Assembly (NCBI GenBank): GCA_028873095.1
Contig: JAGWMU010000001.1
Location: 1-53,529 of the forward strand
DNA: 53,529 bases
Reading direction: 5' to 3'
DNA from: Pseudomonadota bacterium
GTDB lineage: Bacteria; Pseudomonadota; Gammaproteobacteria; Xanthomonadales; Rhodanobacteraceae
This document shows positions 6,299 to 38,611 of the stretch, in pieces (the stretch's first letter is position 1; each line of letters opens with the position of its first letter). A program made the position numbers and the translations under genes. Under the pieces are notes generated by a model, which saw only the letters and a list, made by a program, of their open reading frames with translations, did no database searches and was not told the DNA's origin.

Positions 6299-7360
6299 AT
6301 GGCAATCGTCGATGCATGGGGCATGTTCTTCGTCGCCAGCGGCGAGCCGTTGCAACGGCGTCCGTTCGCCGTGCCGGCCCCCGCCGCCGCCGACGTCGTG
6401 GTCGCGGTAGCCGGTTGCGGCCTGTGCCATACCGACCTTGGATTCCTCTCCGGCGCAGTCAACACCAGGCAGGCGCTGCCGCTGGTGCTTGGGCACGAGA
6501 TCAGCGGCACCGTGGTCGCCGCCGGCGAGGATTTTCCCGAGCTGCTCGGCCGCCATGTGGTGGTGCCGGCGGTGCTGCCCTGCGGCGACTGCGAGCTGTG
6601 CCGGGCCGGACGCGACAACATCTGCCAGCGCCAACGCATGCCGGGCAATGATTTCAACGGTGGCTTCGCCAGCCATCTGACCGTGCCGGCGCGCTTCCTG
6701 TGCCCGCTGCCCGATCGGCTCGGCGACTTTCCGCTGGCCGAACTGAGCGTGGTGGCCGATGCGATCACCACGCCGTACCAATCCGTCGTGCGCAGCGGCC
6801 TGGCCGCAGGCGAGCTGGCCATCGTGGTCGGCGTCGGCGGGGTCGGCCTGTATCTGGTGCAGCACGCCCGCAACGTCGGCGCGCACGTGGTGGCACTGGA
6901 TATCGACCCGGCCCGGCTCGAAACCGCCGCCGCGCAGGGAGCCGAGCTGACCCTCGATTCACGCTCGCTCGACGAACGCGGACTGCGCCAGGCCATCCGC
7001 GCGTTCGCGCAGGAAAAAGGCTACCCCGATACGCGCTGGCGGGTGTTCGAGACCAGCGGCAGCGTGGCCGGCCAGCGCACCGCCTACGGGCTGCTCAGTT
7101 TTGCTGGCACGCTGGGCGTGATCGGCTTCACCCGGGACAAGATCGACCTGCGCCTGTCCAACATCATGGCCTTCGATGCCGACGTGTTCGGCAACTGGGG
7201 CTGCCGCCCGGCGCACTATCCGGCGGTGGTGGCCGACGTGCTGGCCGGGCGCATCGAGCTGCGCCGCAACGTGCGCCAGTTCCCGCTGGCCGACATCAAT
7301 GCCGTCATCGCCGACGCCCAGGCGCATCGCCTGGATGCGCGCGCTGTGCTGGTGCCCTGA
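6299..7360 (+). CDS. had: 6-hydroxycyclohex-1-ene-1-carbonyl-CoA dehydrogenase (Zn-dependent MDR)
   Basis: GLCHTD, GHE, PCGDCELC...C Zn motifs; MPGND, SVVADAITTPYQ, FGNWGC; upstream of oah/dch; AGGAG RBS. Confidence 0.9.
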   Translation: MAIVDAWGMFFVASGEPLQRRPFAVPAPAAADVVVAVAGCGLCHTDLGFLSGAVNTRQALPLVLGHEISGTVVAAGEDFPELLGRHVVVPAVLPCGDCELCRAGRDNICQRQRMPGNDFNGGFASHLTVPARFLCPLPDRLGDFPLAELSVVADAITTPYQSVVRSGLAAGELAIVVGVGGVGLYLVQHARNVGAHVVALDIDPARLETAAAQGAELTLDSRSLDERGLRQAIRAFAQEKGYPDTRWRVFETSGSVAGQRTAYGLLSFAGTLGVIGFTRDKIDLRLSNIMAFDADVFGNWGCRPAHYPAVVADVLAGRIELRRNVRQFPLADINAVIADAQAHRLDARAVLVP

Positions 7361-7392
7361 GCCCCGCCTTCTCCCTCCCCCGCCAGACGCCC

Positions 7393-8478
7393 ATGAAAAA
7401 CCATCACCTGCTCGACAGCTACAGCTACCGCGACATCCTGGTCGAGCGGCGCCCGTTGCGCGACGCCGACGGCCACGCCGTCGAGGGTCTGTACAACGCC
7501 TGGATCCTGCTCAACAACCCCGCGCAGCTGAACTCCTACTCCACCCAGGCGGTGAAGGAACTGATCCTGGCTTTCCGCGAGGCGTCCTGCGACCGCTCGG
7601 TGGTCGCGGTGGTGTTCACCGCGGTCGGCGACAAGGCGTTCTGCACCGGCGGCAACACCAAGGAATACGCCGAGTACTACGCCGGCAATCCGCAGGAATA
7701 CAAGCAGTACATGCGGCTGTTCAACGACATGGTCACGGCGATCCTGCTGTGCGACAAGCCGGTGATCAACCGCGTCAACGGCATGCGCATCGGCGGCGGC
7801 CAGGAGATCGGCATGGCCTGCGATTTCACGCTCGCCGCCGACACCGCCCGCTTCGGCCAGGCCGGCCCCAAGCACGGTTCGGCACCCGACGGCGGCTCCA
7901 CCGATTTCCTGCACCTGTTCGTCGGCATGACCCGGGCGCTGGAGTCATGCACCCTGTGCGAGCACTGGTCGGCGCACACCGCGGTGGACATCGGCCTGAT
8001 CAACCGCATCGTGCCGGTACTGCGCAAGCCCGATGGCGCCTTCATCGCCAATCCGCTGGTGTCCACCGAGCGCTTCGATGCCTGGGGCAACCCGGCCTAC
8101 GGCGCGTTCAAGGCCGGCGCTGCACGCGAGGCCGGCAAGGCGGAAATGCAGGGTTGCACAATCGACTTCAGCCAGCTCGATGCCGAGGTCGAAACAATGG
8201 CCTACAAGTTGTCGCTGACCATGCCGGACTGCCTCAGCAAGACGCTGGAATCGGTCCGCAAGAAGAAACTCGAACACTGGCAGCGCAACTGCGAAACCAA
8301 CCGCTCGTGGCTGGCGCTGAACATGATGACCGAAGGGCGCGCCGGCTTCCGTGCGTTCAACGAGGGGCCCAGGCATCAGCGCGAGGTCGATTTCCACGCC
8401 CTGCGCCGGGCCCTGGCGCAAGCGCAGCCCTGGGACGAACACCTGCTGGCGCGGATCCTGCCGAAGGCCGAGCCATGA
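7393..8478 (+). CDS. oah: 6-oxocyclohex-1-ene-1-carbonyl-CoA hydrolase (Oah/BamA/BzdY, ring opening)
   Basis: NNPAQLNSY, AFCTGGNTKEYAEYYAGNPQEYKQYMRLFNDMV, RIGGGQEIGMACDF, GQAGPKHGSAP, WLALNMMTE. Confidence 0.96.
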   Translation: MKNHHLLDSYSYRDILVERRPLRDADGHAVEGLYNAWILLNNPAQLNSYSTQAVKELILAFREASCDRSVVAVVFTAVGDKAFCTGGNTKEYAEYYAGNPQEYKQYMRLFNDMVTAILLCDKPVINRVNGMRIGGGQEIGMACDFTLAADTARFGQAGPKHGSAPDGGSTDFLHLFVGMTRALESCTLCEHWSAHTAVDIGLINRIVPVLRKPDGAFIANPLVSTERFDAWGNPAYGAFKAGAAREAGKAEMQGCTIDFSQLDAEVETMAYKLSLTMPDCLSKTLESVRKKKLEHWQRNCETNRSWLALNMMTEGRAGFRAFNEGPRHQREVDFHALRRALAQAQPWDEHLLARILPKAEP

Positions 8479-9251
8479 ACTTTTCGACGCTCGCGCTGAC
8501 CGAACGTTGCGACGGCCAGGTGCTGGAGGTGGCATTGAACGCGCCGCCGGCCAATATCCTGAATGCACACATGATCGGCGAGCTGCGCGCGCTGCTGGCG
8601 CGCGAACGCGCCGCGTCCAGGCGCAAGGCGATCGTGCTGTCCGGCGCCGGCGCGCATTTTTGCTACGGCGCCAGCGTGCCCGAACATCGGGCCACGGAAG
8701 TCGGCGCGATGCTGCCGCAATTCCATGGCCTGATCGACGACCTGCTGGCGCACCCGGTGACCAGCATCGCCCGCGTTTCCGGCCGCTGCCTTGGCGGCGG
8801 CTTCGAGTTGGCGCTGGGCTGCAGCCTGCTGTTCGCGGACGAGTCGGCGCGCTTCGCGGTGCCGGAAATCCAGCTCGGCGTGTTTCCGCCGGTGGCGGCG
8901 GTGCTGCTGCCGCAGATGGGTGCGGCGGCGCTCGCACCGCGCCTGGTGCTGTCGGGCGAAACCGTCGACGCGGCGCTGCTGGACCGGTTTGGTCTGCTGG
9001 CCGGATGCGTGCCGGCCGGCGCGGCCGCGGCCGCCGTCGATGCCTGGATCGAACAGCACCTGCTCCCGCGCAGTGCCGCCAGCCTGCGCTGCGCCCACCG
9101 CGCACTGCGCGCGTCGCTGCTGGCGCACTACCGCGGCCTGATCGGCAACGTTGAACGGATCTACCTGGAGGAGCTGATGGCTTCCCATGACGCCAACGAA
9201 GGCATCGCCGCCTTCATCGACAAACGCACCGCGGTCTGGACCGATGCCTGA
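8475..9251 (+). CDS. dch: cyclohexa-1,5-diene-1-carbonyl-CoA hydratase
   Basis: Crotonase fold: PPANIL, HFCYGASVPEH, CLGGGFELA, PEIQLGVFPP, DANEGIAAF; ATGA-coupled to oah. Confidence 0.9.
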   Translation: MNFSTLALTERCDGQVLEVALNAPPANILNAHMIGELRALLARERAASRRKAIVLSGAGAHFCYGASVPEHRATEVGAMLPQFHGLIDDLLAHPVTSIARVSGRCLGGGFELALGCSLLFADESARFAVPEIQLGVFPPVAAVLLPQMGAAALAPRLVLSGETVDAALLDRFGLLAGCVPAGAAAAAVDAWIEQHLLPRSAASLRCAHRALRASLLAHYRGLIGNVERIYLEELMASHDANEGIAAFIDKRTAVWTDA

Positions 9252-9909
9252 GATGGACACCCCACCCCCCACCGACCAGCAGCCCTGCCCGGACGACATC
9301 CTCGCCCAGAGCGCCGCCCTGATGTCCAGCCAGGGCTACCACGGCACCAGCATGCGCGATCTGGCGCGCACCACCGGGCGCAGCCTGTCCGGGCTCTACC
9401 ACCACTTCGCGAACAAGGAAGAATTGCTCTACCTGATCAACCAGCGCGGCTTTTCCCCGCTGTTGGCCAACGCCGAGCGGCTGCGCAGCGAATACCGCAG
9501 CGGCAACGGCCGCCCGGTTGCGGCCGCTCCGGCCAGCGCCGCCCTGCTGTGCGACCTGATCGGAAGCCATCTGGGCTATTTCGGAAGCCATCTCAACGAG
9601 ATGCGAGTGCTGATGTTCGGCACCCAGCCGATGAGTTCGGCGCACGGCAAGGCGATCCGCCAACTGAAGGAGCGCTACACGGAGATCTTCAAGTTCGCGG
9701 TCGGCCAGTACATCGAAACCCGCCGCGAAGCCGCCACCGCCATCGAGATCGAACGCAAGACCTACCTGCTGTTCGGCATGATGAACTGGATCTTCGGCTG
9801 GTACTCGTTCGACGAGCACGGCCCGGCCGAGGCGCTGGCCGAGGAGATCTACACGACCTTCACCAAGGGCTGCCTGGCCTTGCGCCCGGCAGCTGCCCTC
9901 GACGAGTAG
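9244..9909 (+). CDS. TetR/AcrR family transcriptional regulator
   Basis: GYHGTSMRDLARTTGRSLSGLYHHFANKEELL HTH; C-terminal LFGMMNWIFGWY; alternative start 9253. Confidence 0.92.
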   Translation: MPEMDTPPPTDQQPCPDDILAQSAALMSSQGYHGTSMRDLARTTGRSLSGLYHHFANKEELLYLINQRGFSPLLANAERLRSEYRSGNGRPVAAAPASAALLCDLIGSHLGYFGSHLNEMRVLMFGTQPMSSAHGKAIRQLKERYTEIFKFAVGQYIETRREAATAIEIERKTYLLFGMMNWIFGWYSFDEHGPAEALAEEIYTTFTKGCLALRPAAALDE

Positions 9910-9912
9910 CGC

Positions 9913-11073
9913 ATGGACACCCAACCGCTGATCGACCGCTGCGAACGCCTGTACCGGGACATCGATCTTGGCTACGTGCAGGCGTGGAAACAACGCACCG
10001 GCGGCAAGGCGATCGGCCACCTGCCGGTGTACGTGCCGCGCGAGCTGATCCACGCCGCCGGGCTGCTGCCGGTCGGCATCATGGGCGGCGGCGACGACGT
10101 CGAGATCATTCGCGGCGACGCCTACTTCCAGTCCTACATCTGCCACCTGCCGCGTTCCACCGTCGAGCTTGGCCTGGCCGGCAAGCTCGATTGCCTGGAT
10201 GGCATGTTGTTCCCTGCGATCTGCGATGTGATCCGCAACCTCAGCGGCATGTGGCAGATGATGTTCCCGGACAAGTACACCAAGTACCTCGACTTCCCGC
10301 AGACTTTCAACGACGCCGGCCGCGAGTTCTACCGCCTCGAGATGGCCGAGCTGCTGCTGGAGCTGGAGGGCCTGTCCGGCATCCGCGCCACCCCCGAGCG
10401 GCTCAATCGGTCGATCACCCTGTACAACGCCAACCGCCGCGCGCTGGCCGCCCTGTACGACCTGCGCGCCGCCGAGCCGCATCGAATTCCGACCAGCGAG
10501 CTCTACCTGCTGCAACGGGCCGGCAACGTGCTCGAGGTGAGCGAGCACACCGCGATGCTGCACGAATACCTGGCGGCTGCCCGGGTCAGCCATCGCCCGC
10601 AGCGCGACAACGTGCGGGTGGTGGCGACCGGCCTGTTCTGCGAGCAGCCGCCGCTGTCGATGGTGCGCGCGATGGAGAACAGCGGCTGCTACATCGTCGA
10701 CGACGACTGGGTGCTGGGCGCGCGCTACCAGTTGGGCGACACGCCGGTCGGCGACAACCCGCTGGCGGCCATCGTCGACGCCTACATGAACGGCACCGTG
10801 GCCACCGCCACCCGTTACGTCGAGGGCGACGACAAGGGCGCGTTCCTGGTCGAACAGGTGCGCCGCCGGCATGCCGAAGGCGTGATCTTTGCCGCCGCCA
10901 GCTTCTGCGACCCGGCCCTGCTCGACCGGCCGATGGGACAGAAGGCGCTGGCCGAGGCGGGCATCCCGTACACCGCTTTCACCTATTCGGAAAACACCGG
11001 CCAGGTCCAGGTCATCAAGGAACAGGCCGGCACCTTCGCCGATTCCATCAAACTGTGGGGAGCCGTGTCATGA
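9913..11073 (+). CDS. bcrC: benzoyl-CoA reductase class I subunit C (gamma)
   Basis: PVYVPRELIHAAG, RGDAYFQSYICHLPRS, FPAICDVIRNLSGMW, GLFCEQPP, SFCDPALLD, SENTGQ...KEQAGTFADSIKLW. Confidence 0.95.
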   Translation: MDTQPLIDRCERLYRDIDLGYVQAWKQRTGGKAIGHLPVYVPRELIHAAGLLPVGIMGGGDDVEIIRGDAYFQSYICHLPRSTVELGLAGKLDCLDGMLFPAICDVIRNLSGMWQMMFPDKYTKYLDFPQTFNDAGREFYRLEMAELLLELEGLSGIRATPERLNRSITLYNANRRALAALYDLRAAEPHRIPTSELYLLQRAGNVLEVSEHTAMLHEYLAAARVSHRPQRDNVRVVATGLFCEQPPLSMVRAMENSGCYIVDDDWVLGARYQLGDTPVGDNPLAAIVDAYMNGTVATATRYVEGDDKGAFLVEQVRRRHAEGVIFAAASFCDPALLDRPMGQKALAEAGIPYTAFTYSENTGQVQVIKEQAGTFADSIKLWGAVS

Positions 11074-12344
11074 GCAGCGCCGAAGTCCTGAAGGAAGAAA
11101 GCATGGTGCTGCAGAAGAAGATGCTCGGCGAGCACTTCGACACCCTGTCCAAGTCCCGGGAGAACGGGCGCAAGGTGGTCTACACCTTCGTGCCCGGCAA
11201 CCTCAACGAGCTGATCCTCGCCTTCGACCTGCTGCCGGTGCACCCGGAGGTCAACGCACTGCAGTCGGGCATGCGCAAGCTGTCCGGCGATTACATCCAG
11301 GAAGCCGAGAAACACGGCCACTCCGAGGACGTCTGCACCTACGTCAAGTGCGATATCGGCATGCTCAAGAAGGGCAACATCGGCCCCACCGGCGAGAAGC
11401 TTCCGCCGCCGGACCTGCTGCTGCTGAGCTATACCGGCTGCTTCACTTTCATGAAGTGGTTCGAGCTGCTGAAACAGGAGTATGGCTGCCCGGTGGTGAT
11501 GCTGCAGGTGCCGTACCAGGCCGACGGCAGGATCACCGCCAGCCAGCGCGCGTTCGTCGCGCGCCAGCTGCGCGACGTGGTGGTGCCGGCGCTGGAACAG
11601 GTGTCCGGCAAGAAACTCGACGAGGACCGTCTGCGCGAATTGCTGGCCAGCTCCGCGCGCGCCGAGGACGACCTCGTCCATGTCTGGGAATCGGCCAAGC
11701 ACAAGCCCTCGCCGATCGATGCCTACTTCGGCGGGGTCTATTACATCGGCCCGATCTTCACCGCCTTCCGCGGCCTGCCCGTGTGCGAGCAGTACTACCG
11801 TTCGCTGCGCAGCGAGGTCGATTACCGGATTGCCCACGGCATGGGTCCGACCACGCCGGAAGGCGAGCTGCGCCAGCAGAAGTACCGCATCGTCATCGAG
11901 GGCCCGCCGAACTGGACCAGCTTCCGCGAGTTCTGGAAGATCTTCTCCGACGAGGGCGTGGTGATGGTGGCGTCGACCTACACCAAGGTCGGCGGCCTGT
12001 ACGAGCAGGGCTTCCGCCACGACCCGGACCATCCGTTCGAAACCCTGGCCGAGTATTGCCTGGGCTGCTACACCAACCGCAGCCTGCCGACGCGGGTCGA
12101 CATCCTCGCCAAGTACGTCGAGGAGTACGAAGCCGACGGCGTGCTGTTCAACTCGATCAAGAGTTGCAACTCGTTCTCGGCCGGGCAGCTGATGATGCTG
12201 CGCGAGCTGGAAAAGCGTACCGGCAAGGCCGGCGCCTTCATCGAAAGCGACCTGGTCGATCCGCGTTACTTCAACGCGGCCAACATCAAGAACCGCCTCG
12301 AATCCTACTTCCAGATGCTGGAAGCGAAGCGGCAGGCGGCCTGA
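11070..12344 (+). CDS. bcrB: benzoyl-CoA reductase class I subunit B (beta, catalytic)
   Basis: YTFVPGNL, GHSEDVCTYVKCDIG, SYTGCFTFMKWFE, EGPPNWTSFREFWK, YCLGCYTN, SIKSCNSFSAGQL, DLVDPRYF. Confidence 0.95.
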   Translation: MSSAEVLKEESMVLQKKMLGEHFDTLSKSRENGRKVVYTFVPGNLNELILAFDLLPVHPEVNALQSGMRKLSGDYIQEAEKHGHSEDVCTYVKCDIGMLKKGNIGPTGEKLPPPDLLLLSYTGCFTFMKWFELLKQEYGCPVVMLQVPYQADGRITASQRAFVARQLRDVVVPALEQVSGKKLDEDRLRELLASSARAEDDLVHVWESAKHKPSPIDAYFGGVYYIGPIFTAFRGLPVCEQYYRSLRSEVDYRIAHGMGPTTPEGELRQQKYRIVIEGPPNWTSFREFWKIFSDEGVVMVASTYTKVGGLYEQGFRHDPDHPFETLAEYCLGCYTNRSLPTRVDILAKYVEEYEADGVLFNSIKSCNSFSAGQLMMLRELEKRTGKAGAFIESDLVDPRYFNAANIKNRLESYFQMLEAKRQAA

Positions 12345-12355
12345 AGGGGGACACC

Positions 12356-13747
12356 ATGGACTGTTGCTATATCGGCATCGATCTGGGCTCGACCACCACC
12401 AAGGCGGTGTTCCTGGACGAACACGAGCGCATCATCGGGCGCGGCATCACCAACTCGCGCAGCAATTACGAGCTGGCCTGCCAGGTCGCGCGCGAGGAAG
12501 CCGAAATCGATGCCCGCTTCGGCCTGCTGCGCGGCAAACTCGAAGCCAGCCCGCAGATCGGCGCGCTGGCCGAGCCGCTGATGGCGATACTGGCCTGCAC
12601 CTACGCGCTGGCCCAGCACCTGGAGCAGTTGCGCGCGCTGCATGCCGAATGCAGGCAGCTGGCGCTGGCGCACGCGCTGCCGGCGGACGAAATGGCGGCC
12701 GTCGAGCGCGCCCTGGACAGCATCTTCGCCGCCCTCGAACGCCAGGCCGAACTGGACTTCTTCCCCGGCAGCGCCGCTGCCAGCGATTTCTTCCGCGACC
12801 TTGCCACCAGTCAGTACCTGAAGCAGGCCGAGCAGGTCACGCGCGAGTTGCCGGTACCCTTCGACCGCCTGGTCGGGCTGTTCGACGCCGCCATCATCCG
12901 GGTCGAAAACCACAGCTTCGCCGGTCAGTATCGCAGTTACCTGGAGTTCGCCGCCCAGCGCGTCGCCGCCGACGGGCGCTTCGCGGCATTTGCCGACGAG
13001 ATCGCCACCGCCGTCGGCGACACCGCCGAGCAGCGCTTCAATGTGCTCAACATCGTCGGTACCGGCTACGGCCGCCTGACCCTGCCGTTCGCACGCGAGC
13101 AGATCCGTTCGGAGATCCTCTGCCACGGCCTGGGGGCGCACTACATGTTTCCGCTCACGCGCAGCGTGCTGGACATCGGCGGCCAGGACACCAAGGCGAT
13201 CCAGGTCGACGGCAATGGCCTGGTCACCGGGTTCCAGATGAACGACCGCTGCGCCGCCGGCTGCGGCCGCTATCTGGGCTACATCGCCGACGAAATGAAC
13301 ATCGGCGTGCATGAGCTGGGGCCGCTGGCGATGCAGTCGACCAAGGAGGTCAAGATCAATTCGACCTGCACCGTATTTGCCGGCGCCGAGTTGCGCGAGC
13401 TGATGGCGCTCGGCGAAAAGCGCGAGGACATCCTGGCCGGCCTGCACCGCGCGATCGTGCTGCGCGCCATGTCGCTGCTGGCGCGCTCGGGCGGGGTCAG
13501 TTCCGAATTCACCTTCACCGGCGGCGTCGCGCGCAACCAGGCGGTGACCTCGGCGCTGCAAAGGCTGGTGGCCGAAAACTACGGCGAAGTCGCCATCAAC
13601 ATCAGCGCCGACAGCATCTTCACCGGCGCCGTCGGTGCCGCCCTGTACGCCAAGCGCGACCCCAAGGGCGTGATGGCGGATCTGGAAGTCAGCAAGCTCG
13701 CCAGCAAACGCCCCGCCTGCGCCGGCGGCGCGAACTGCCCGGCCTGA
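12356..13747 (+). CDS. bcrA: benzoyl-CoA reductase class I subunit A (alpha, ASKHA ATPase)
   Basis: GIDLGSTTTK, GITNSRSNY, large BcrA-type insert, GTGYGR, SEILCHGLG, DIGGQDTK, MNDRCAAGCG, NSTCTVF. Confidence 0.95.
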   Translation: MDCCYIGIDLGSTTTKAVFLDEHERIIGRGITNSRSNYELACQVAREEAEIDARFGLLRGKLEASPQIGALAEPLMAILACTYALAQHLEQLRALHAECRQLALAHALPADEMAAVERALDSIFAALERQAELDFFPGSAAASDFFRDLATSQYLKQAEQVTRELPVPFDRLVGLFDAAIIRVENHSFAGQYRSYLEFAAQRVAADGRFAAFADEIATAVGDTAEQRFNVLNIVGTGYGRLTLPFAREQIRSEILCHGLGAHYMFPLTRSVLDIGGQDTKAIQVDGNGLVTGFQMNDRCAAGCGRYLGYIADEMNIGVHELGPLAMQSTKEVKINSTCTVFAGAELRELMALGEKREDILAGLHRAIVLRAMSLLARSGGVSSEFTFTGGVARNQAVTSALQRLVAENYGEVAINISADSIFTGAVGAALYAKRDPKGVMADLEVSKLASKRPACAGGANCPA

Positions 13748-13758
13748 GGAGGCCACCC

Positions 13759-19362: not shown

Positions 19363-19376
19363 CAGGAAATCCCCGC

Positions 19377-28612: not shown

Positions 28613-28880
28613 CTGCAACCTGTGCGATGCCTGCGTAACCGAATGCCCGAACGAGGCGATCACCGCCGGCGCCGGCATCTACACCATCGACCCCGCCAAA
28701 TGCACCGAGTGCGTGGGCTTTTTCGACGAAGCGCAATGCGCGGCGGTGTGCCCCCAGGAATGCTGCGGACCCGACCCCGACCGGGTCGAGTCCGAAGCGG
28801 CCTTGCTCGCGCGTGCGCGTCGGCTGAATCCCGAGGAGGATTTTTCCGGCGACGTGCCCTCGCACTTTTCCAGCAAATGA
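28590..28880 (+). CDS. fdx: 2[4Fe-4S] ferredoxin (YfhL/Allochromatium type)
   Basis: CNLCDACVTECP and CTECVGFFDEAQCAAVCP; GAGGAG RBS. Confidence 0.92.
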   Translation: MAYRITSDCNLCDACVTECPNEAITAGAGIYTIDPAKCTECVGFFDEAQCAAVCPQECCGPDPDRVESEAALLARARRLNPEEDFSGDVPSHFSSK

Positions 28881-31776: not shown

Positions 31777-32208
31777 ATGGGCCGCCCCTACGTATATCGC
31801 GCCCCGGTGCGGTTCACCCACACCGATCCGGCCGGCTATGTATTTTTCCCGCGCTTTTTCGAGATGTTCCAGGCCGCGGTCGAGGACTGGTTCAACCACT
31901 GCCTGGGACTGAACTACGCCGAGCAGATCCTGCTTCACGGCGTCGGTTTTCCGACCGCGCATACCGAATGCGATTTCGTGCGTCCCTGCCGGCTCGGCGA
32001 AACGCTTGATCTGCGCCTGATACTGGAAAAAGTCGGCTGCAGCTCGCTGACCCTGCGCTTCGACGGCAGCGTGGGCGGCGAGAAGCGGCTGTGCGCGCGC
32101 TCGGTACTGGTGACCATCGACATGCAACACGGCCGCCCGCAACCGATCGGCACTGAGCTGGGCGAGCGCTTGCGCGCCTACCTGGCGCTGTGCCAGGCCG
32201 ATGCCTGA
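31777..32208 (+). CDS. acyl-CoA thioesterase (4-hydroxybenzoyl-CoA thioesterase/YbgC family)
   Basis: VRFTHTDPAGYVFFPRFFEMF...EDWF. Confidence 0.88.
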   Translation: MGRPYVYRAPVRFTHTDPAGYVFFPRFFEMFQAAVEDWFNHCLGLNYAEQILLHGVGFPTAHTECDFVRPCRLGETLDLRLILEKVGCSSLTLRFDGSVGGEKRLCARSVLVTIDMQHGRPQPIGTELGERLRAYLALCQADA

Positions 32209-32782
32209 GCTGGCCGCGCTGGTTCTGGCCGCCGGCGCCGGTCGACGCTTCGGGGGGATCAAGCAACTGCTGTCGGTAGACGGCGAACCGCTGATCTGCC
32301 GTGCGATCACCCTCGCCCAGACGGTGGCGCCGGGCGCGGTGCAGGTCGTGCTCGGCGCCCATCGCGTGCAGGTCGCCCCCCGGCTGCCGCGGGGCTTGCC
32401 GGTCGTCGAATGCGCCGACTGGGCCGAGGGTCTCGGCACCAGCCTGGCGGCCGGTATTGCCGGATTGCGCGGACAGCCCGACGGCGTGCTGTTGCTGTTG
32501 GCCGATCAGATCGCCTTGCGGGCGGACGCCCTGCAGACGCTGGCGGCACGCTGGCGTGCCGTGCCCGGAAGCGTGTTTTGCGCGTTCTATGACGGCCAGC
32601 CCGGGGTGCCGGCGATCTTTCCACGCCGGCTGTTCGGCGAACTGATGGCCTTGCGCGGCGAGCGCGGCGCCAAACCGCTGCTGCGGCGCGAGTGCGGCCC
32701 GGAGAGGCAGCAGGCCATGCCCGAAGCGGCCATCGACATCGACACCGCCGCCGACCTCACGCGCTGGCAGGCGAGCCGCTAA
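32201..32782 (+). CDS. mocA: molybdenum cofactor cytidylyltransferase-like nucleotidyltransferase (MocA family)
   Basis: LAAGAGRRFGGIKQLL, WAEGLGTSL, LLADQ, GVPAIF, GERGAK, DIDT. Confidence 0.8.
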   Translation: MPELAALVLAAGAGRRFGGIKQLLSVDGEPLICRAITLAQTVAPGAVQVVLGAHRVQVAPRLPRGLPVVECADWAEGLGTSLAAGIAGLRGQPDGVLLLLADQIALRADALQTLAARWRAVPGSVFCAFYDGQPGVPAIFPRRLFGELMALRGERGAKPLLRRECGPERQQAMPEAAIDIDTAADLTRWQASR

Positions 32783-34088
32783 CGGCGTCGGGATGGCGGT
32801 CGATGCGCCGACATTCGGCCCGGTAGCGGCGGGCGGCACCGAGCAGGTTCAGCCCGAGCAGGGCGAAGTCGGCCAGCCACAGTGCCGCCGCCGGTCGCAG
32901 CAGCGCCGGCAGCGGCACGGCGGCGAGCAGCACGACCAGCGCCGCCAGATGCAGGTGGAACTGCCGCCGGGTGCGCGGTTCCGGCAACAGCGACTTCATG
33001 TTCGGCAGGACGATGCGGTGACGCACCTCGATCCGGGTGGCGAGGCGCTGTTGCAGGTGCAGCCAGACCAGGAACGGCACGATCTTGTAGAGCATGCCGT
33101 TGACCACCGACAACGCGAAGCCGAGCAGAAACAGCAAGGCCGCGGCCAGCCCCAGCGTTGCCGCCGCCGCGGGCGCCGCCAGTAGCGCCGCGGCGCCGAT
33201 CAGCGCCGCCAGCAGCAGCGCCAGCATGCCCAGTCGCCAGAAATCGAGGCTGGCATCGCCAACCTTGCGTCGACGCCGGGCCAGCAGGCGCAGGGTGAGC
33301 AGCGCAAACGTCGCCCACAGTGCCGCCAGCAGCAGCACGGGCAGCTGCGCCAGCGGCAAGCCATACCCCGCCGCCAGCGAGCGCCAGCCCAGCAACGCGA
33401 ACAGGCCCGGCGCCAGCCAGCGCCTCAGCAGCGGCGGGTAAGGCGGCGTCATCTGGAACATCGGCACCACTTGCCCGGCGACTACCGCGACCAGGGCCGC
33501 GATCCAGCCGAGCAGGCCCCAGGCCAGATGCAGGTCGGTCAGCGGCAGACGCCACAGTGGCAACCCCAGATCGCTGTGGCCGAGCCCGAGCAGCAGGCCC
33601 AGGCCGAGCGTCAACGCCAGACCGAGCAGGGCCCAGCGCATCCCGCGCACGTTGTCCTGCATCTGCGCCACCCGTGCCAGCCCGAGGCCCATCACCGCGA
33701 GGAATCCGCCGAGCCCCAGGCCCAGCAGCGCCACCGCCGCCCGGAACGCCTCCCGGCCGGCGCCCAGGAAGCCGGACGCCAGACTCAGCGTACCCAGCAG
33801 CAGCAGGCCATGGCACAGCGTACCGAGCAGCCTTGGCCGCGCCACCCGCACGCCCACCAGTACCGGCATCATCTGCAGCAGCGCCCCGCACATCACCATC
33901 GTCAGCACGCCAAGCACCAACAAGTGCGTCAGCGCCAGCGCGCCGGCGCTCCAGCGCGACGCCAGCGCATCGGGACCAAGCCACAGCAGCAGGCCGGCGG
34001 CCGCCAGGCCGAACAGCGGTGCGCTCAGGAAGAAACGCAGCGGCACCGACAGCGGCGGCGCCTGTTCCAGCGACAGTCCGGCGCTCAC
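32757..34088 (-). CDS. polytopic membrane protein typically associated with DUF2249/hemerythrin genes (His-containing TM helices)
   Basis: GTG start coupled to DUF2249 stop; APPLSVPLRFF, THLLVLG, HLAWGLLGW, PMF, GMLYKIVPFLVWLH; about 12 TM segments. Confidence 0.72.
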   Translation of the reverse strand: MSAGLSLEQAPPLSVPLRFFLSAPLFGLAAAGLLLWLGPDALASRWSAGALALTHLLVLGVLTMVMCGALLQMMPVLVGVRVARPRLLGTLCHGLLLLGTLSLASGFLGAGREAFRAAVALLGLGLGGFLAVMGLGLARVAQMQDNVRGMRWALLGLALTLGLGLLLGLGHSDLGLPLWRLPLTDLHLAWGLLGWIAALVAVVAGQVVPMFQMTPPYPPLLRRWLAPGLFALLGWRSLAAGYGLPLAQLPVLLLAALWATFALLTLRLLARRRRKVGDASLDFWRLGMLALLLAALIGAAALLAAPAAAATLGLAAALLFLLGFALSVVNGMLYKIVPFLVWLHLQQRLATRIEVRHRIVLPNMKSLLPEPRTRRQFHLHLAALVVLLAAVPLPALLRPAAALWLADFALLGLNLLGAARRYRAECRRIDRHPDAVSGSPASA

Positions 34089-34342
34089 TCGTCGCCTGCC
34101 GCTGCTTGCAGGTCGGCGGCGCGCCAGATGAGCAGTTCGCAGCGGCCCTCCGCGAGCGCGACCACCCGCCAATCGAAGCCACGCTGCCCGAGCAGCGGAA
34201 ACAGCGGCAGCGGCTCGCGGCTGACCAGTGCCCGCAGCCGCTGTCCGGGCGCCAGTCGGTCGCTGCCGGCGAGAATCCGCTCCATCGGCTCGCACGGCGG
34301 CAGGCCGCGCACGTCGAGGTTCAATTCGGTGGCGGCCACCAT
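34085..34342 (-). CDS. DUF2249 (TusA/SirA-like) domain protein
   Basis: LDVRGLPPCEPMERIL...REPLPLFPLL..RGF. Confidence 0.8.
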   Translation of the reverse strand: MVAATELNLDVRGLPPCEPMERILAGSDRLAPGQRLRALVSREPLPLFPLLGQRGFDWRVVALAEGRCELLIWRAADLQAAAGDE

Positions 34343-34344
34343 GG

Positions 34345-34773
34345 TCAGTACGCCTGCATGCGTTCCAGCAGGATCTGGGCGCGGTCGGCCAGGGTGCTGT
34401 CGCAGAGCGGATAGAGCATCTGCTCCTCCTTCATGTTGTGCTGCTGGATCAGGATGTGCAGCGTTTCACTCAGGCCCAGAAAATCGTCCAGCTCGCGGTC
34501 TTCCAGCGCCTGCCGCAGCTGCGCCATCATCGCCCTTATCTGCCCGTGCTCCATGCGCATCACCGCGGTGGGCCCGCCGACCATGCCGCTGCGGGCCTCG
34601 AATTCGGGAAACAGCACAGTTTCCTCGATCGACAGGTGCCGCTCCATCGCCGCTTCGAAGCCGGCGTAGGCGGCCTGCGCGACAGCCCGGTCGCCGTCGG
34701 CGGCGGCATTTTCGGCCTTGGCGAACAGTTCGTCGCAATCGCCGTGGTCGGCAGTGAGGAAGTCGGTCAGCAT
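34345..34773 (-). CDS. hemerythrin HHE domain protein
   Basis: DHGDCDELF, RHLSIEETVLFP, GGPTAVMRMEH, QQHNMKEEQMLYP. Confidence 0.9.
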   Translation of the reverse strand: MLTDFLTADHGDCDELFAKAENAAADGDRAVAQAAYAGFEAAMERHLSIEETVLFPEFEARSGMVGGPTAVMRMEHGQIRAMMAQLRQALEDRELDDFLGLSETLHILIQQHNMKEEQMLYPLCDSTLADRAQILLERMQAY

Positions 34774-35837
34774 GGCAGGTCCCGGTCCGTTTCAATGACG
34801 ACCGACTCTGGCACAGGCCCGCGCCGGCAGTCCTGTTCCAGGTCAAGTCCTTGCGCATGGGTCTGCAGGCGTGCCGCCAGCGACAGCGCGATGGCGGCGG
34901 CGCCGTTCCCGCCCAAGGGCAGCCCGGCAGGGGACTCCAAGTGCCCGCCCAGGCGTTCGCGGACGCTGCCGGGCAAGGTCGCCAGCACGTCCTCGCGCCG
35001 GCGTTCCGGACCGAGCAGGCCGATGTAGCCGGGCAACTGCGGCCAGCCGGCCAACGTCGCCAGCGCCTCGCGGTCGTAGCCGAAGTGGTGGGCCATGACC
35101 AGCACCGCGTCGTAGCAGCCCCCCTCGGTCGGGGTCGCCGGCAGCAGGCGCTCGACCAGCGTCCCGCAGGCAGCCCAGTCCGGACGCGGCTCGACCAGAT
35201 CCACCCGCCAGCCGAGCTGGTCCAGCAGCGGCAGCAGCCGTTCGCTTTCCGGCCCGGCGCCGCAGATCAGCGCCCTCGGCAGCGGCGCCACCTGCAAGTC
35301 CCAGGCGGCGTCGCCGGGTTCCGCCGCCGCGGTCGCCTCGTCCACCGGCAGCGACCATTCGGCCCGCAGGGTGCCGGCCCGCGCGCACAGCCGACCCGAC
35401 ACGGCATAGCTGAACCGCAACGCGTGGCCGAGTTCGCGGTAGTCGGACAGGATCGGGCGCAGAGCGGGCAGCGCCGGCAGCGGCAGCACCAGCACCTGCT
35501 GCCGACCCCGGCAGCCGGCACCGGAGCCGGAAAACACATCGGACAGATCGCGGTTGTCGAGGTCGAGCAGGCGCACCCGGCCATCGAGCCGGGTGGCATC
35601 GGCGGCCACCCGCACGTCGCGTTCCAGGCAGCCCGCACTGACCCAGCCGCAGCGCCGGCCCGCGACGCTGAAATGGACCAGGGTTCCCGCTTTGGCATAG
35701 GCATGGCCGGCGACGCCGAGCACCAGCGCCAGCACCCCGGGCTGCGGCTGGCCGAGATCCTCGATGCAGGCGTCCAGCGCCGCCTTGCTGGGCGCACCGG
35801 AAACGTATTGCAGCGTCGCCGCCGATTCTGTGGCCAT
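34767..35837 (-). CDS. xdhC: XdhC/CoxF family molybdoenzyme maturation factor
   Basis: GHAYAKAG, GWVSAGCLE, GAGCRG, ICGAGPE, VMAHH...D, YIGLLGP..RR, PAGLPLGG...AIALS. Confidence 0.88.
   Translation of the reverse strand: MATESAATLQYVSGAPSKAALDACIEDLGQPQPGVLALVLGVAGHAYAKAGTLVHFSVAGRRCGWVSAGCLERDVRVAADATRLDGRVRLLDLDNRDLSDVFSGSGAGCRGRQQVLVLPLPALPALRPILSDYRELGHALRFSYAVSGRLCARAGTLRAEWSLPVDEATAAAEPGDAAWDLQVAPLPRALICGAGPESERLLPLLDQLGWRVDLVEPRPDWAACGTLVERLLPATPTEGGCYDAVLVMAHHFGYDREALATLAGWPQLPGYIGLLGPERRREDVLATLPGSVRERLGGHLESPAGLPLGGNGAAAIALSLAARLQTHAQGLDLEQDCRRGPVPESVVIETDRDLPC
34833..34846 (-). promoter_or_regulatory. possible FNR/DNR-type site for the hemerythrin module (inside the xdhC 3' end)
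   Basis: Minus strand TTGAC-CTGG-AACAG, 22 nt upstream of CAGAGT (-10-like, 34810-34805), giving -41.5 geometry; second half-site is degenerate. Confidence 0.42.
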
Positions 35838-35872
35838 GGTGGCGATCACGGCGGGTGGCCGACGACCGCGCA

Positions 35873-37243
35873 CTATTTCGCCAGCGGCTCGAAGCGCGCC
35901 GTGAAGTGCCGCAGCGCGGGCGGCTCGTCGACGATCCGGTAGCCGCGCAGCTCGCCGGCACGGGCCGCGACCTCGGTGCAGACCTCGACGACGTAGTCGA
36001 TGTGGCTCTGGGTGTAGGTACGGCGGGGAATGGCGAGGCGCACCAGGTCGAGCGCGGCGGCGGTCTCGCTGCCGTCGGGGTGGCGGCCGAACATGACCGT
36101 GCCGATCTCGCAGCTGCGAATGCCGCCAGCTTCGTAGAGCGCGATCGCGAGGGCCTGTCCGGGGTACTGCAGCGGCGGGATGTGGGGCAGCAAGGCGCGG
36201 GCGTCGAGGTAGACCGCGTGGCCGCCGCTCGGACGCATGACCGGGATGCCGGCAGCGTGCAGGCCGTCGCCGAGGTAGTCGGTGGAACGGATGCGGTAAC
36301 GCAGGTAGTCGTGCTGGACAACCTCCTTCAGGCCCTGGGCGATGGCATCAAGGTCACGGCCGGCCAAGCCACCGTAAGTCGGGAAGCCCTCGGTCAGGAT
36401 CAGCAGATTGCGGCAACGTGCGGCGAGCCTGTCGTCGCGGACGGCGAGCCAGCCGCCGATATTGGCCAGGCCATCCTTCTTCGCGCTCATGGTCATGCCG
36501 TCGGCGAGGGCGGCGATCTCGCGCACGATGTCGGCGACGTCACGCCCGCCCTGGCCGCTTTCGCGCTCGCGGATGAACCAGGCATTCTCGGCGAAGCGGC
36601 AGGCATCGAGGAACAGCGGCACACGGTGGCGATCGCACAGCGCGCGCACGCCACGCAGGTTCTCCAGCGAGACCGGCTGGCCGCCGCCGGAATTGTTGGT
36701 GATGGTGACGAACACGGCGGGCACGTCGTCGCGACGGGCACTGAGCAGGGCATCGAGCCGGCCGAGGTCCATGTTGCCCTTGAACGGGTGTTCCAGGGCG
36801 GGGTCGAGGCCTTCGGCAATGGGCAGATCGACCGCCTCGGCGCCGGTCGCCTCGATATTGGCGCGGGTGGTGTCGAAATGGGTGTTGCTGGGTATGACGA
36901 GTCCCGGCCCGCCGATCGCGGCCATCAGGATCTTCTCGGCGGCGCGGCCCTGATGGGTGGGGATCACGTGGGCGAACGGAAACAGCTCCTTGACCGCCGC
37001 TTCGAAGCGGTACCACGACGGCGAGCCCGCGTAGGCCTCGTCGCCGCGCTGGACGCAGGCCCACTGCTCGCTCGACATGGCGCCGGTGCCGGAGTCGGTA
37101 AGCAGGTCGATCAGGACGTCCTCGCTGCGCAGCGAGAACAGGTTGTAGCCGGCCTTCACGATCGCTTCGCGCCGCTCGGCGGCGGTACTCATGCGAAGCG
37201 GCTCGACCGAGTGGATGCGGAACGGTTCGATGATGGTAGGCAT
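35873..37243 (-). CDS. tnaA: tryptophanase (tryptophan indole-lyase, PLP beta-eliminating lyase)
   Basis: EPFRI, IDLLTDSGT, GDEAYAGS, THQGRAAE, MSAKKDG (PLP Lys); tryptophanase-type specificity residues FDTT, EIG, LRHF. Confidence 0.85.
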   Translation of the reverse strand: MPTIIEPFRIHSVEPLRMSTAAERREAIVKAGYNLFSLRSEDVLIDLLTDSGTGAMSSEQWACVQRGDEAYAGSPSWYRFEAAVKELFPFAHVIPTHQGRAAEKILMAAIGGPGLVIPSNTHFDTTRANIEATGAEAVDLPIAEGLDPALEHPFKGNMDLGRLDALLSARRDDVPAVFVTITNNSGGGQPVSLENLRGVRALCDRHRVPLFLDACRFAENAWFIRERESGQGGRDVADIVREIAALADGMTMSAKKDGLANIGGWLAVRDDRLAARCRNLLILTEGFPTYGGLAGRDLDAIAQGLKEVVQHDYLRYRIRSTDYLGDGLHAAGIPVMRPSGGHAVYLDARALLPHIPPLQYPGQALAIALYEAGGIRSCEIGTVMFGRHPDGSETAAALDLVRLAIPRRTYTQSHIDYVVEVCTEVAARAGELRGYRIVDEPPALRHFTARFEPLAK

Positions 37244-37318: not shown

Positions 37319-37332
37319 TTGACCCAAGACAA
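37319..37332. promoter_or_regulatory. FNR/ANR/DNR-type box shared by divergent tnaA and tyrB promoters
   Basis: TTGAC-CCAA-GACAA; 22 nt to TAAGCT (37355-37360, +) and 22 nt to CAGAAT (37296-37291, -), so centred at -41.5 for both. Confidence 0.65.
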
Positions 37333-37387
37333 GCCGGCATCGCCCACCCGCGCCTAAGCTGTCGCCACCGCCGTTGCCGAGACGCCC

Positions 37388-38611
37388 ATGTTCAGCCACC
37401 TGCCAGCCACTCCGGACGATCCCATCCTGGGCCTGATGGCGCAGTTCAGGAACGATCCGCGCGCCAGCAAGATCGACCTCGGCGTCGGCGTGTATCGCGA
37501 CGAAGCCGGCCGCACGCCGATCCTGGACTGTGTGCGCGAGGCCGAGCGGCTGCGCCTGGCCGAGGAGGACAGCAAGTCCTATCAGGGCATGGCCGGCGAC
37601 CCCGCCTTTACCGCGGCGATCGAGGCGCTGGCGCTGGCCGAACATCCGGTACGCCGCGACCAACGCGTGTTCACCGCGCAGACCCCCGGCGGCACCGGCG
37701 CGCTGCGCGTGGCGGCCGAACTGATCCGCCATAGCCGGCCCGATGCCTGCCTGTGGTTGCCCGATGTCAGCTGGGCCAACCACCCCAGCGTGTTTCAGGC
37801 GGCCGGACTGCGCCTGCGCGAATACCCTTACTACGACCCGCACAGCCAGAGCCTGCGGGCCGATGCGCTGCTCGCCGCACTGGCGCAGGTACCGGCCGGC
37901 GATGTGGTGCTGATGCACGCCTGTTGCCACAACCCCAGCGGCGTCGAGATTCCGGACCGGCTGTGGCCGGAGATCGCCGCGCTGGCGCAGCGGCGAGGCT
38001 TCGTTCCGCTGCTGGACATGGCCTACCAGGGCTTCGCCGAAGACCTCGATCGCGATGCCGCCGGCGTGCGCACGCTGGCCGCCGCGGTGCCGGAGATGTT
38101 GCTGTGCACCTCGTGCTCGAAGAACTTCGGCCTGTATCGCGAACGCATCGGTGCGCTGAGCCTGATCGGCGACGGCGCCCGCACGACGGCGGCGGCCGGC
38201 TCGGTCATGCTCGGGCGGATCCGCAACCTCTATTCGATGCCGCCGGCGCACGGCGCGGCCATCGTTGCGCGCATCCTGACCCGGCCCACGCTGACCGCCC
38301 AATGGCGAGACGAGCTGGCCGCCATGCGCGAACGCATCCGCCGCATGCGCGCGCTGGCCGCATCCCGGCTGGCGGCAACCGGCCTGCAACGTGATTTCGG
38401 CTTCATCGAGCGCCAGCGCGGCTTGTTCTCCTTCCTCGGCATCAGCACGGCGCAAGTCGATCGCCTGCGCGACGAATTCGCGATCTATCTGGTCGGCAGC
38501 AGCCGCATGAACCTGGCCGGCCTGAGCGCAGGCAATATCGATTACTTCGCCGACTCCCTGGCCACCGTGCTGCGAGAGCGACCCGGCCCCGCGCCGGTTT
38601 CGGCGCCATGA
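37388..38611 (+). CDS. tyrB: aromatic amino acid / aspartate aminotransferase (class I, TyrB/PhhC-like)
   Basis: DPILGL, KIDLGVGVY, QTPGGTGALR, SWANH, HACCHNPSG, DMAYQGF, SCSKNFGLYRERIG. Confidence 0.85.
   Translation: MFSHLPATPDDPILGLMAQFRNDPRASKIDLGVGVYRDEAGRTPILDCVREAERLRLAEEDSKSYQGMAGDPAFTAAIEALALAEHPVRRDQRVFTAQTPGGTGALRVAAELIRHSRPDACLWLPDVSWANHPSVFQAAGLRLREYPYYDPHSQSLRADALLAALAQVPAGDVVLMHACCHNPSGVEIPDRLWPEIAALAQRRGFVPLLDMAYQGFAEDLDRDAAGVRTLAAAVPEMLLCTSCSKNFGLYRERIGALSLIGDGARTTAAAGSVMLGRIRNLYSMPPAHGAAIVARILTRPTLTAQWRDELAAMRERIRRMRALAASRLAATGLQRDFGFIERQRGLFSFLGISTAQVDRLRDEFAIYLVGSSRMNLAGLSAGNIDYFADSLATVLRERPGPAPVSAP

Follow-up and report, generated by a model that had tools for sequence, protein, structure and literature searches.

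A conserved ligase–reductase–dehydratase-type module beside class I benzoyl-CoA reductase genes: a candidate route from phenylalanine and tyrosine to benzoyl-CoA

Closest described systems

The Thauera-type class I benzoyl-CoA pathway, in which KorAB keeps ferredoxin reduced, has counterparts in the island characterized here for BcrCBAD, Dch, Had, Oah, ferredoxin, KorAB and HcrCAB, but the island differs from it in having neither benzoate-CoA ligase nor Pad genes and in its TetR/PaaR-like control. As in Aromatoleum aromaticum EbN1 and D. multivorans, which beta-oxidize phenylpropanoids, cinnamoyl/coumaroyl-CoA would be converted to (4-hydroxy)benzoyl-CoA via hydratase, dehydrogenase and thiolase; unlike the island, their route has free phenylpropanoid entry, an acyl-CoA dehydrogenase and no radical dehydratase. 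The phenyllactyl-CoA dehydratase of Clostridium sporogenes (FldABC/FldI) and HadBC/HadI from C. difficile (PDB 3o3m) share with a four-gene module of the island the catalytic fold with three Cys, Glu and Ser, a homodimeric ATP-dependent activase and an upstream 2-oxoacid reduction. The module, however, lacks a beta subunit, has a CoA ligase where those systems have a family III CoA-transferase, and contains a PanE-fold reductase, and its product is likely to be oxidized to benzoyl-CoA, not reduced to arylpropionate.

In D. multivorans, a phenylacetate/phenylpyruvate gene set (Dmul_24730–24900; Table S1 of Doerries et al., 2016, PMC5109826) contains an alpha-only "R-phenyllactate dehydratase" with an activator, a "phenylpyruvate reductase", a pair of ligases, IorAB, a HAD/ECH fusion of 680 aa and a thiolase of 396 aa, with paralogues of the same lengths in the cinnamate cluster. 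The ligase, hydratase and thiolase were formed specifically on phenylacetate/phenylpyruvate; the authors read the genes from phenyllactate to phenylpyruvate, on the former of which the strain grows, and stated that the step to benzoyl-CoA was unexplained (PMC5109826). Judged by annotation, gene order and lengths, this set resembles the island in placing an alpha-only predicted dehydratase, activator, reductase, ligases, HAD/ECH and thiolase beside benzoyl-CoA genes without Pad, but differs by class II Bcr, sulfate reduction, IorAB, a TRAP transporter and the oxidative direction drawn by its authors. A 2026 hypothesis for the benzene degrader BzS1 runs through phenylpyruvate, phenyllactyl-CoA, cinnamoyl-CoA and benzoyl-CoA and remarks on a singular FldB-like gene (PMC13416013, Fig. 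7A); unlike the island, it concerns benzene activation and not amino-acid catabolism, and gives no gene for the dehydratase.

Organization of the island

The window, i.e., the whole 53,529-nucleotide stretch analysed, contains an operon of 24 same-strand genes (6299–32782; intergenic gaps of at most 35 bp), which together with tnaA and tyrB forms an island present in two of the 37 genomes of the genus. Profile searches of the window found all genes named in the preliminary description, and all were intact. The relative G035 (99% complete; the source genome, G000, is 82% complete) carries all 30 genes in identical order at 70–98% identity, which rules out an assembly artefact. The TetR regulator, SDR, ferredoxin, KorAB, thioesterase, MocA and XdhC genes were additional to that description. 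The features are listed below, score pairs being bits obtained versus the curated TIGR/NCBIfam/PRK cut-off.

6204..6232, +, sigma70-like promoter TTGACC-17-TAAAGT (1 site vs. 0.0 expected in shuffled region)
6245..6258, unstranded, palindromic operator CNAACGNNCGTTNG (perfect match to T. thermophilus PaaR consensus)
6299..7360, +, had (TIGR03201, 448 vs. 339)
7393..8478, +, oah, ring-cleaving hydrolase (TIGR03200, 528 vs. 464)
8475..9251, +, dch, dienoyl-CoA hydratase (TIGR03189 best match, under cut-off, 199 vs. 292)
9253..9909, +, TetR-family regulator (PF00440 + PF17932; best PDB 3vpr)
9913..14625, +, bcrC, bcrB, bcrA, bcrD, class I benzoyl-CoA reductase (TIGR02263, 506/421; TIGR02260, 712/487; TIGR02259, 550/578; TIGR02261, 341/313)
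14622..16433, +, AMP-forming CoA ligase of the module (PF00501 + PF23562)
16430..17353, +, PanE-fold 2-oxoacid reductase (TIGR00745, 143.5/141)
17353..19362, +, 3-hydroxyacyl-CoA dehydrogenase/enoyl-CoA hydratase (HAD/ECH) fusion (PF02737 + PF00378)
19377..20645, +, thiolase 1 (TIGR01930)
20639..21397, +, SDR dehydrogenase (PF13561)
21400..22581, +, thiolase 2 (TIGR01930)
22581..26484, +, hcrC, hcrA, hcrB-like molybdenum enzyme (best models TIGR03193/4/5, under cut-offs)
26481..27710, +, HgdX, a catalytic-type subunit standing alone, BCR/HAD radical enzyme family (best model HadB, 206 bits)
27707..28612, +, HgdC-type ATP-dependent activase (TIGR00241, 151/125)
28590..28880, +, 2[4Fe-4S] ferredoxin, YfhL type (NF033683, 99/86)
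28916..31776, +, korA, korB, 2-oxoacid:ferredoxin oxidoreductase (TIGR03710, 619/483; TIGR02177, 243/262)
31777..32782, +, 4HBT-type thioesterase and MocA-like Mo-cofactor cytidylyltransferase (profile/Pfam matches)
32757..35849, –, membrane protein (no Pfam or NCBIfam match), DUF2249, hemerythrin, XdhC (Pfam domains)
35873..37243, –, tryptophanase (PRK13238, 661/285; HFDTT and LRHF motifs)
37388..38611, +, aromatic amino acid transaminase tyrB (PRK09257, 527/377, subfamily cut-off passed)

The ring part (Bcr, Dch/Had/Oah, Hcr-like enzyme, ferredoxin and KorAB) is of an already known kind. All four subunits of a BCR-type reductase were found, C, B and D passing their cut-offs and A lying just under, with BcrA as its best model. 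The assignment of hcrCAB held in part: the beta subunit (best PDB 1rm6_B) keeps the four-Cys insertion, C128, C144, C152 and C166 being aligned, but all three subunits fell under the TIGR03193-5 cut-offs (809/995, 224/405 and 153/258), and the gamma subunit scored similarly on other xanthine-oxidase-family models. Since PaoB-type enzymes have the same [4Fe-4S] insertion, it is not exclusive to Hcr. The tnaA product was shown by alignments to have the Asp of HFDTT and the His of LRHF, which we take to be markers of tryptophanase versus tyrosine phenol-lyase. The tyrB gene is a second genome copy, its paralogue (44%) being on contig C180. Within the island neither an amino-acid transporter nor an acyl-CoA dehydrogenase was found.

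The module proteins and their distribution

HgdX aligned with HadB (3o3m; E 9e-49), and its predicted fold matched HadB (Z 49.8, rmsd 1.7, 387 aligned) slightly better than BzdO (Z 46.6). The cluster ligands C92/C131/C359 together with E63 and S45 were invariant in 81/81 sequences, and the separate activase showed invariant ATP motifs and two cluster cysteines, C161 and C200, invariant in 74/74; a catalytic fold with three Cys and Glu and such an activase are among the features of 2-hydroxyacyl-CoA dehydratases. In the tree HgdX branched separately from BcrB, BzdO and the HadB-like group as a clade by itself; the deep nodes lacked resolution. Because of this separate clade and the small difference in Z, the sequence fits a dehydratase or a reductase. 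Gly47 is invariant in HgdX, the corresponding residue being Phe in HadB and Trp in BzdO, and suggests a larger pocket.

Assignment to described subfamilies was rejected: HgdX scored 206.5 vs. 750 bits on the HadB equivalog (NF052455) and 135 vs. 487 (BcrB) and 80 vs. 449 (BzdO) on class I BCR catalytic subunits, in both cases with a separate clade. On the double-cubane protein (DCCP), whose [8Fe-9S] cluster takes six Cys, it reached 69 vs. 350 bits; in comparison with four over-cut-off DCCPs it shows Ser at the first Cys and the CxC motif is missing, but its C302 aligns with a DCCP Cys.

The dehydratase and activase named previously are both present, but the former as a catalytic (alpha) type subunit alone. 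No beta subunit with a second cluster was found in 80 HgdX loci, nor any HGD-D protein in them besides HgdX, BcrB and BcrC; the only such partner in G000 was BcrC. Exactly three family members were present in 38/48 first-type genomes, and HgdX was the sole one in 8/31 second-type genomes, these groups being defined within this analysis (48–49 vs. 31 genomes/loci). Characterized 2-hydroxyacyl-CoA dehydratases all have two clusters (PMC5897657). HgdX is predicted by modelling to work as a homodimer without beta subunit (0.83 vs. 0.59 for the best control; pLDDT at least 94; runs agreeing in at least 96% of contacts), by a mark reached by 20/30 solved dimers and 1/23 monomers; the pass may reflect likeness to solved HadBC and DCCP.

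The ligase missed the benzoate-CoA ligase cut-off (TIGR02262, 62.9 vs. 375 bits). It is a CoA ligase as described, of the AMP-forming type, but its likeness to Fcs is weak (best NCBIfam model PRK12582, 185 vs. 777); it is likely an aryllactate-CoA ligase, and orthologues occurred in 46/48 module genomes. The PanE-fold enzyme is likely an arylpyruvate reductase: K190, E272, N108 and N194 were invariant and S260 nearly so, presumably filling the catalytic Lys/Glu/Asn/Ser roles of the fold, G198 stands where Asn is conserved, and G000, like four relatives, also carries a separate housekeeping panE with a higher score. An Asp after beta-2 in 17/19 distant orthologues suggests NAD(H) use.

Of the best 80 of 434 HgdX relatives, even with the short contigs, 78 had the activase as an adjacent gene, 62 a CoA ligase and 50 a PanE-type gene, and contiguous bcrCBAD-ligase-hgdX-panE-activase was found in Zixibacteria, Eisenbacteria, Acidobacteriota, Bacteroidetes, Fidelibacterota and Lentisphaeria records. 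The four-gene module (PanE-type reductase, CoA ligase, HgdX, activase) is widespread across many phyla and recurs together with bcr. The cultured carrier Desulfonema magnum has a 58% identical HgdX. In 24/31 second-type loci the ligase is replaced by an ADP-forming synthetase; PanE-type genes of a second clade also occur. All 28 longer HgdX homologues were PanE-HgdX fusions; the cluster Cys were lost in 29/30 fusions, and intact HgdX, activase and ligase followed in 4/4 loci with downstream sequence. Thiolase 1 comes after the activase in several distant loci. Arylpyruvate-related neighbours, in different lineages, included IorAB (11/31) and PaaK-like ligase (8/31) near second-type loci, tyrB and phenylpyruvate decarboxylase before had (Thermomonas), tna after had (Blastocatellia) and an aminotransferase after the activase (Bacteriovoracaceae); direct adjacency in first-type loci (n = 49) was seen for tyrB in three and tna in five. 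The Tna/TPL family was present in 31/48 module genomes vs. 0/7 ligase-type Bcr genomes, the 17 without Tna being mostly Emcibacter-type. The comparison genomes are incomplete MAGs, and related genomes among them are not independent.

Nearly all module genomes have Bcr-family subunits. As stated previously, no canonical benzoate-CoA ligase (best 235 vs. 375 bits in a genome profile search) or PaaK, PadG or phenylpyruvate decarboxylase was found in the 82% complete G000, nor in the 99% complete G035. Benzoate-CoA ligase exceeded the cut-off in 3/48 module genomes, nine more had family matches under it (349–374 bits), and PadG was found in 0/49. Among 400 genomes of the class drawn evenly, benzoate-CoA ligase was present in 7/7 BcrB genomes without HgdX and absent from the one with HgdX. 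Many uncultured lineages with Bcr have neither benzoate-CoA ligase nor Pad genes.

Proposed route and alternatives

We consider it probable, from sequence comparison, that the island joins a class I benzoyl-CoA pathway to a module feeding Phe/Tyr through aryllactyl-CoA and cinnamoyl/coumaroyl-CoA by a predicted homodimeric dehydratase. TyrB, by the known function of its family, would form arylpyruvate, the PanE-fold enzyme (R)-aryllactate and the ligase its CoA ester, or activation may precede reduction; HgdX, primed by activase and ferredoxin, would release water to give cinnamoyl/coumaroyl-CoA, the direction favoured for aryl substrates (PMC5897657). Acetyl-CoA and benzoyl-CoA or 4-hydroxybenzoyl-CoA would then be formed by the HAD/ECH fusion with thiolase 1, the chemistry being as in cinnamate degraders, and Hcr, Bcr, Dch, Had and Oah, whose families have known functions, would take the ring apart. 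KorAB would supply reduced ferredoxin, TnaA would salvage pyruvate from Trp, and nitrate is the likely electron acceptor (narG was found in the genome). The SDR likely acts on 3-hydroxypimelyl-CoA, and part of the work of the beta-oxidation genes could lie in the lower benzoyl-CoA pathway. Support comes from the conserved module, ligase swaps, PanE fusions, its mutual exclusivity with benzoate-CoA ligase, arylpyruvate-enzyme neighbours and the D. multivorans set. The route proposed earlier is thus the best explanation, with comparative support, although its substrates are deduced. Its claim of no missing step would hold only if the dehydratase works without beta subunit. The cluster contains no gene for glutaryl-CoA dehydrogenase (gcdH), and none was found in the 82% complete G000; G035 has one. 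The combination was said not to be known from any described pathway, but the reaction sequence appeared earlier as a hypothesis (PMC13416013) and the module recurs at other loci; the new part is the module, which likely takes phenylalanine/tyrosine to benzoyl-CoA along a route so far without a demonstrated example.

Plant phenylpropanoids (cinnamate, p-coumarate) are unlikely as main substrates that would be ligase-activated and beta-oxidized as in Aromatoleum/Desulfococcus, with PanE and HgdX a side branch. Ligase, HAD/ECH, thiolase, Hcr and Bcr are enough for that known route, and the ligase's best model, an acyl-CoA synthetase subfamily, indicates no clear substrate; yet HgdX, activase and PanE, the ligase's steadiest neighbours, and the PanE fusions are left without explanation, the island has no acyl-CoA dehydrogenase, and hosts include deep-sea and sediment lineages. 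Phenylpropanoid use is compatible with the aryllactyl-CoA reading, and both can coexist. There is less to be said for an aliphatic 2-oxoacid (2-oxoglutarate, 2-oxoadipate or branched-chain) joining the lower pathway at glutaconyl-/crotonyl-CoA: the nearest solved relative is leucine-pathway HadB, glutaryl-CoA dehydrogenase genes flank 5/31 second-type loci, and HAD/ECH and thiolases suit that pathway, but Bcr would have no feeder in 45/48 genomes, the neighbours are arylpyruvate enzymes, and Gly47 suggests the larger pocket.

That HgdX is an alternative ring-reducing subunit with BcrC, or an electron helper for Hcr, on substituted benzoyl-CoAs is very doubtful. It nearly always accompanies BcrBC in first-type genomes, hgdX directly follows hcrB in many loci and the BzdO fold is close. 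Against this, HgdX stands as the sole HGD-D protein in eight second-type genomes, it has a single activase and not an A/D pair, no hcr genes separate sdr from hgdX in L013 and L029, none of the 31 second-type loci contains hcr, seven of the eight Bcr genomes of the even draw lack HgdX, and the fusions stay unexplained. A module running backwards, with arylpyruvate made from cinnamoyl-CoA or aryllactate in amino-acid salvage or in the oxidation of aryllactate, agrees with the direction drawn and the growth on phenyllactate in D. multivorans (PMC5109826) and with the reversibility of ADP-forming synthetases, but is highly improbable given the AMP-forming ligase pulling towards the CoA ester, the favoured forward dehydration (PMC5897657) and a step to benzoyl-CoA left as unexplained as its authors say (PMC5109826).

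If the aryllactyl-CoA reading is true, the ring-pathway food of many uncultured Bcr lineages is protein-derived Phe/Tyr, not pollutants or lignin, bcr matches in metagenomes are to be read differently, and a radical dehydratase needing no second iron-sulfur cluster is predicted. More tentatively, and rather short of an even chance in our judgement, a homodimeric relay-free aryllactyl-CoA dehydratase could be a major benzoyl-CoA feeder in many uncultured phyla, with peptide eaters mineralizing Phe/Tyr without oxygen, and in Geobacteraceae/Desulfobacterales the module with PaaK and reverse IorAB could degrade phenylacetate, CO2 being added before chain shortening. This would be a candidate answer to the printed gap between phenylacetate/phenylpyruvate and benzoyl-CoA in Pad-less sulfate reducers.

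Control of the operon is likely exerted by the cluster TetR, a repressor likely sensing aryl-CoA and binding the operator at 6245..6258. In a search with the T. thermophilus PaaR consensus (PMC9493321), this was the only 0-mismatch site in the window, and its core recurs upstream of had in five other loci.

Gene content, control region and ring pathway of the island

The genes named in the preliminary description were all confirmed by a codon-model gene call and by scanning 30 proteins against NCBIfam and Pfam. Its proposed route, from phenylalanine or tyrosine via arylpyruvate, aryllactate, aryllactyl-CoA and cinnamoyl- or coumaroyl-CoA to benzoyl-CoA and Bcr, is the best-supported reading and probably the right one, although we infer every step of the module (PanE-fold reductase, CoA ligase, the dehydratase-like subunit HgdX and its activase). 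The module shares its island with the bcr ring genes, tnaA and tyrB. The route brings known chemistries together in a new way and includes one unusual enzyme.

On the plus strand, 24 genes from had (6299) to mocA (32782) follow one another with intergenic gaps of −23 to +35 bp and therefore very likely form a single operon. Two elements were found upstream of had:

6204–6232, sigma70-like promoter
6245–6258, palindrome just downstream of the promoter, a putative operator matching the T. thermophilus PaaR site in the available text of PMC9493321

Five further loci of distantly related groups (L112, L159, L149, L029 and L147), all had-first clusters, carry the palindrome core ahead of had; it is absent where had lies inside an operon. 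Such a putative conserved PaaR-type operator points to an aryl-CoA-sensing TetR regulator, whose ligand would identify the pathway intermediate.

BcrCBAD, Dch, Had, Oah, ferredoxin and KorAB constitute an ordinary Thauera-type pathway. The Hcr-like molybdenum enzyme, encoded beside MocA and XdhC, scored under the TIGR cut-offs; its beta subunit was closest to that of T. aromatica and retained the four-Cys insertion. GcdH is not encoded in the island; a search of the source genome (G000, 82% complete) did not detect it, and it is present in G035, a 99%-complete relative of the same genus. G000 has narG, and nirK was found in G035 and not in G000. Benzoate-CoA ligase, phenylacetate-CoA ligase (PaaK) and the phenylglyoxylate dehydrogenase marker PadG were absent from both genomes, bearing out the claim that a canonical benzoate-CoA ligase and phenylacetate-route genes are missing; phenylpyruvate decarboxylase was found in neither. 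The sole aromatic ammonia-lyase of G000 and of G035 scored best as HutH, which makes direct formation of cinnamate by a PAL unlikely. For the gene at 35873–37243, identity as a tyrosine phenol-lyase was rejected.

The module in other genomes

A GTDB genome scan returned 434 stretches encoding HgdX relatives, the best 80 of which were analyzed. Within 10 kb of HgdX, 78 of these 80 loci encoded an activase, 62 encoded a CoA-activating enzyme and 50 had a PanE-type gene. The loci were divided by ligase type into 49 of a first type (48 genomes, L025 and L026 sharing one) and 31 of a second. The synteny check suggested in the preliminary description was run, and ligase, panE, hgd and activase were contiguous with bcr in first-type loci from several phyla, in the order bcrCBAD-ligase-hgdX-panE-activase and often with thiolase 1 next; a ligase orthologue was present in 46 of the 48 first-type genomes. 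On contig C13 of the genome carrying L025 and L026 (G080), the ligase-hgdX-activase block apparently occurs twice, inverted.

Second-type loci (Geobacteraceae, Desulfobacterales and Myxococcota records) carried an ADP-forming synthetase in the ligase's place in 24 of 31 cases, and had IorAB (11/31), a PaaK-like ligase (8/31) or a CoA-transferase (8/31) as neighbors. Six of them (L063, L064, L072, L075, L080 and L083) showed the arrangement activase-hgdX-ADP-forming synthetase-CoA-transferase-paaK-iorAB-panE, with thiolase and hydratases. Judged by gene content, loci of this kind could serve phenylacetate degradation via reductive carboxylation to phenylpyruvate. The G. bemidjiensis genome paper did not mention the module.

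A phenyllactyl-CoA dehydratase route occurs in Archaeoglobus fulgidus. No paper demonstrating an aryllactyl-CoA route to benzoyl-CoA was found in the open-access literature, and the available text of the 2025 Desulfobacteraceae network paper contains nothing on it. Identical reactions are drawn as a hypothesis, for benzene degradation, in the accessible part of PMC13416013; the standard phenylalanine route in Aromatoleum is treated in that of PMC9765128. For D. multivorans, the available sections of PMC5109826 list a predicted phenyllactate dehydratase consisting of an alpha subunit only (416 aa), an activator, a phenylpyruvate reductase, ligases, IorAB, a HAD/ECH fusion and a thiolase, the whole set filed under phenylacetate and phenylpyruvate; PadB and PadEFGHI are given as absent, and the step to benzoyl-CoA is left unclear by the authors. 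As far as those sections describe it, this set is similar to locus L064 in gene order and lengths. No D. multivorans-named protein was among the matches listed; HgdX of Desulfonema magnum was 58% identical.

Benzoate-CoA ligase was above the cut-off in 3 of the 48 module genomes, with matches at 349–374 bits in nine more, and PadG exceeded its cut-off in 0 of 49. An even draw of 400 genomes of the class, used as a control, contained eight others with BcrB: seven without HgdX, all of which had benzoate-CoA ligase, and one with HgdX and no ligase; these counts are small and include related genomes. Tna/TPL-family genes were present in 31/48 module genomes, 0/7 ligase-type BcrB genomes and 1/35 genus members without the island. 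Among 20 flanking regions from 11 genomes, L159 (a Thermomonas record without PaaK) carried tyrB and a phenylpyruvate decarboxylase gene (10048–11676) before had, one region had tna after had and another an aminotransferase after the activase; the remaining neighbors were mostly unrelated housekeeping genes.

HgdX and the PanE-HgdX fusions

HgdX (26481–27710) scored highest against the HadB profile (206 bits), followed by BcrB (135), BzdO (80) and DCCP (69), in the BCR/HAD/DCCP family described in the available text of PMC11971306. HadB was also nearest by PDB sequence and by fold (Z 49.8, versus 46.6 for BzdO). In a tree of 148 sequences HgdX formed its own clade, with deep nodes unresolved and dehydratase not separated from reductase. 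HgdX falls outside the HadB, BcrB, BzdO and DCCP families. His131 of BzdO, named in PMC11971306, failed as a reductase/dehydratase marker, as BcrB has Phe there.

Invariant residues were the three Cys of the cluster, Glu63, Ser45 and two further Cys, C43 and C302; in double-cubane proteins, the residue aligned with C302 ligates the second sub-cluster. According to the accessible part of PMC5897657, HADs have two clusters and aryllactyl-CoA dehydration is favored in the forward direction.

None of the 80 loci (best 80 of 434 HgdX relatives) encoded a beta subunit. Among the matches listed, 38 of 48 first-type genomes had exactly three proteins of the HGD-D family, whose position and pattern suggest BcrC, BcrB and HgdX, and HgdX was the sole such protein in 8 of 31 second-type genomes. 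The predicted HgdX homodimer scored 0.83 against 0.59 for the best control (contact agreement at least 96%, pLDDT at least 94), and in the calibration set 20 of 30 solved dimers reached the dimer mark, as did 1 of 23 monomers; since like complexes have already been solved, the score shows likeness, not binding.

All 28 longer HgdX homologues were PanE-HgdX fusions. A plain "Rosetta stone" reading of them was corrected, most fused domains being without the cluster Cys (all three lost in 29 of 30 fusions). In all four metagenome loci extending far enough, intact HgdX, activase and ligase were encoded downstream of the fusion, in two of them together with hcr, dch and had. In L184, L185, L186 and L189, the HgdX copy fused to PanE lacks the cluster, and two activase-like genes and an intact HgdX come next. 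This looks like a step from homodimer to heterodimer in which one subunit would be dead. Module synteny, ligase swaps and fusion loci together argue that reductase, ligase and dehydratase are one functional unit. Pantothenate synthesis has a panE gene of its own elsewhere, and the PanE copy of the module is probably not that enzyme.

Distribution and genomic sites of the island

A survey of 61 related genomes detected HgdX in two, both from the same genus as the window. G035 contained all 30 genes in identical order. The window copy (5944–38672) lies between rmuC and folE, which adjoin each other in four relatives without the cluster, and in G035 (contig C101) the island is located before srkA, about 5 kb off; no integrase was noticed at either site. 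The shared set and order, with the empty rmuC-folE junction in relatives, therefore indicate that tnaA and tyrB move together with the ring genes and the module as a single unit.

On the minus strand, 32757–34773 encodes a membrane protein without family match, a DUF2249 protein and a hemerythrin, which accompany the island in close relatives and possibly protect Fe-S enzymes from NO or O2. A second DUF2249 gene was located near an Rrf2-like gene on contig C112. Besides, a chaperone-usher fimbrial gene set of lower GC content, named from translations only and unrelated to the island, was observed at 43739–48989.
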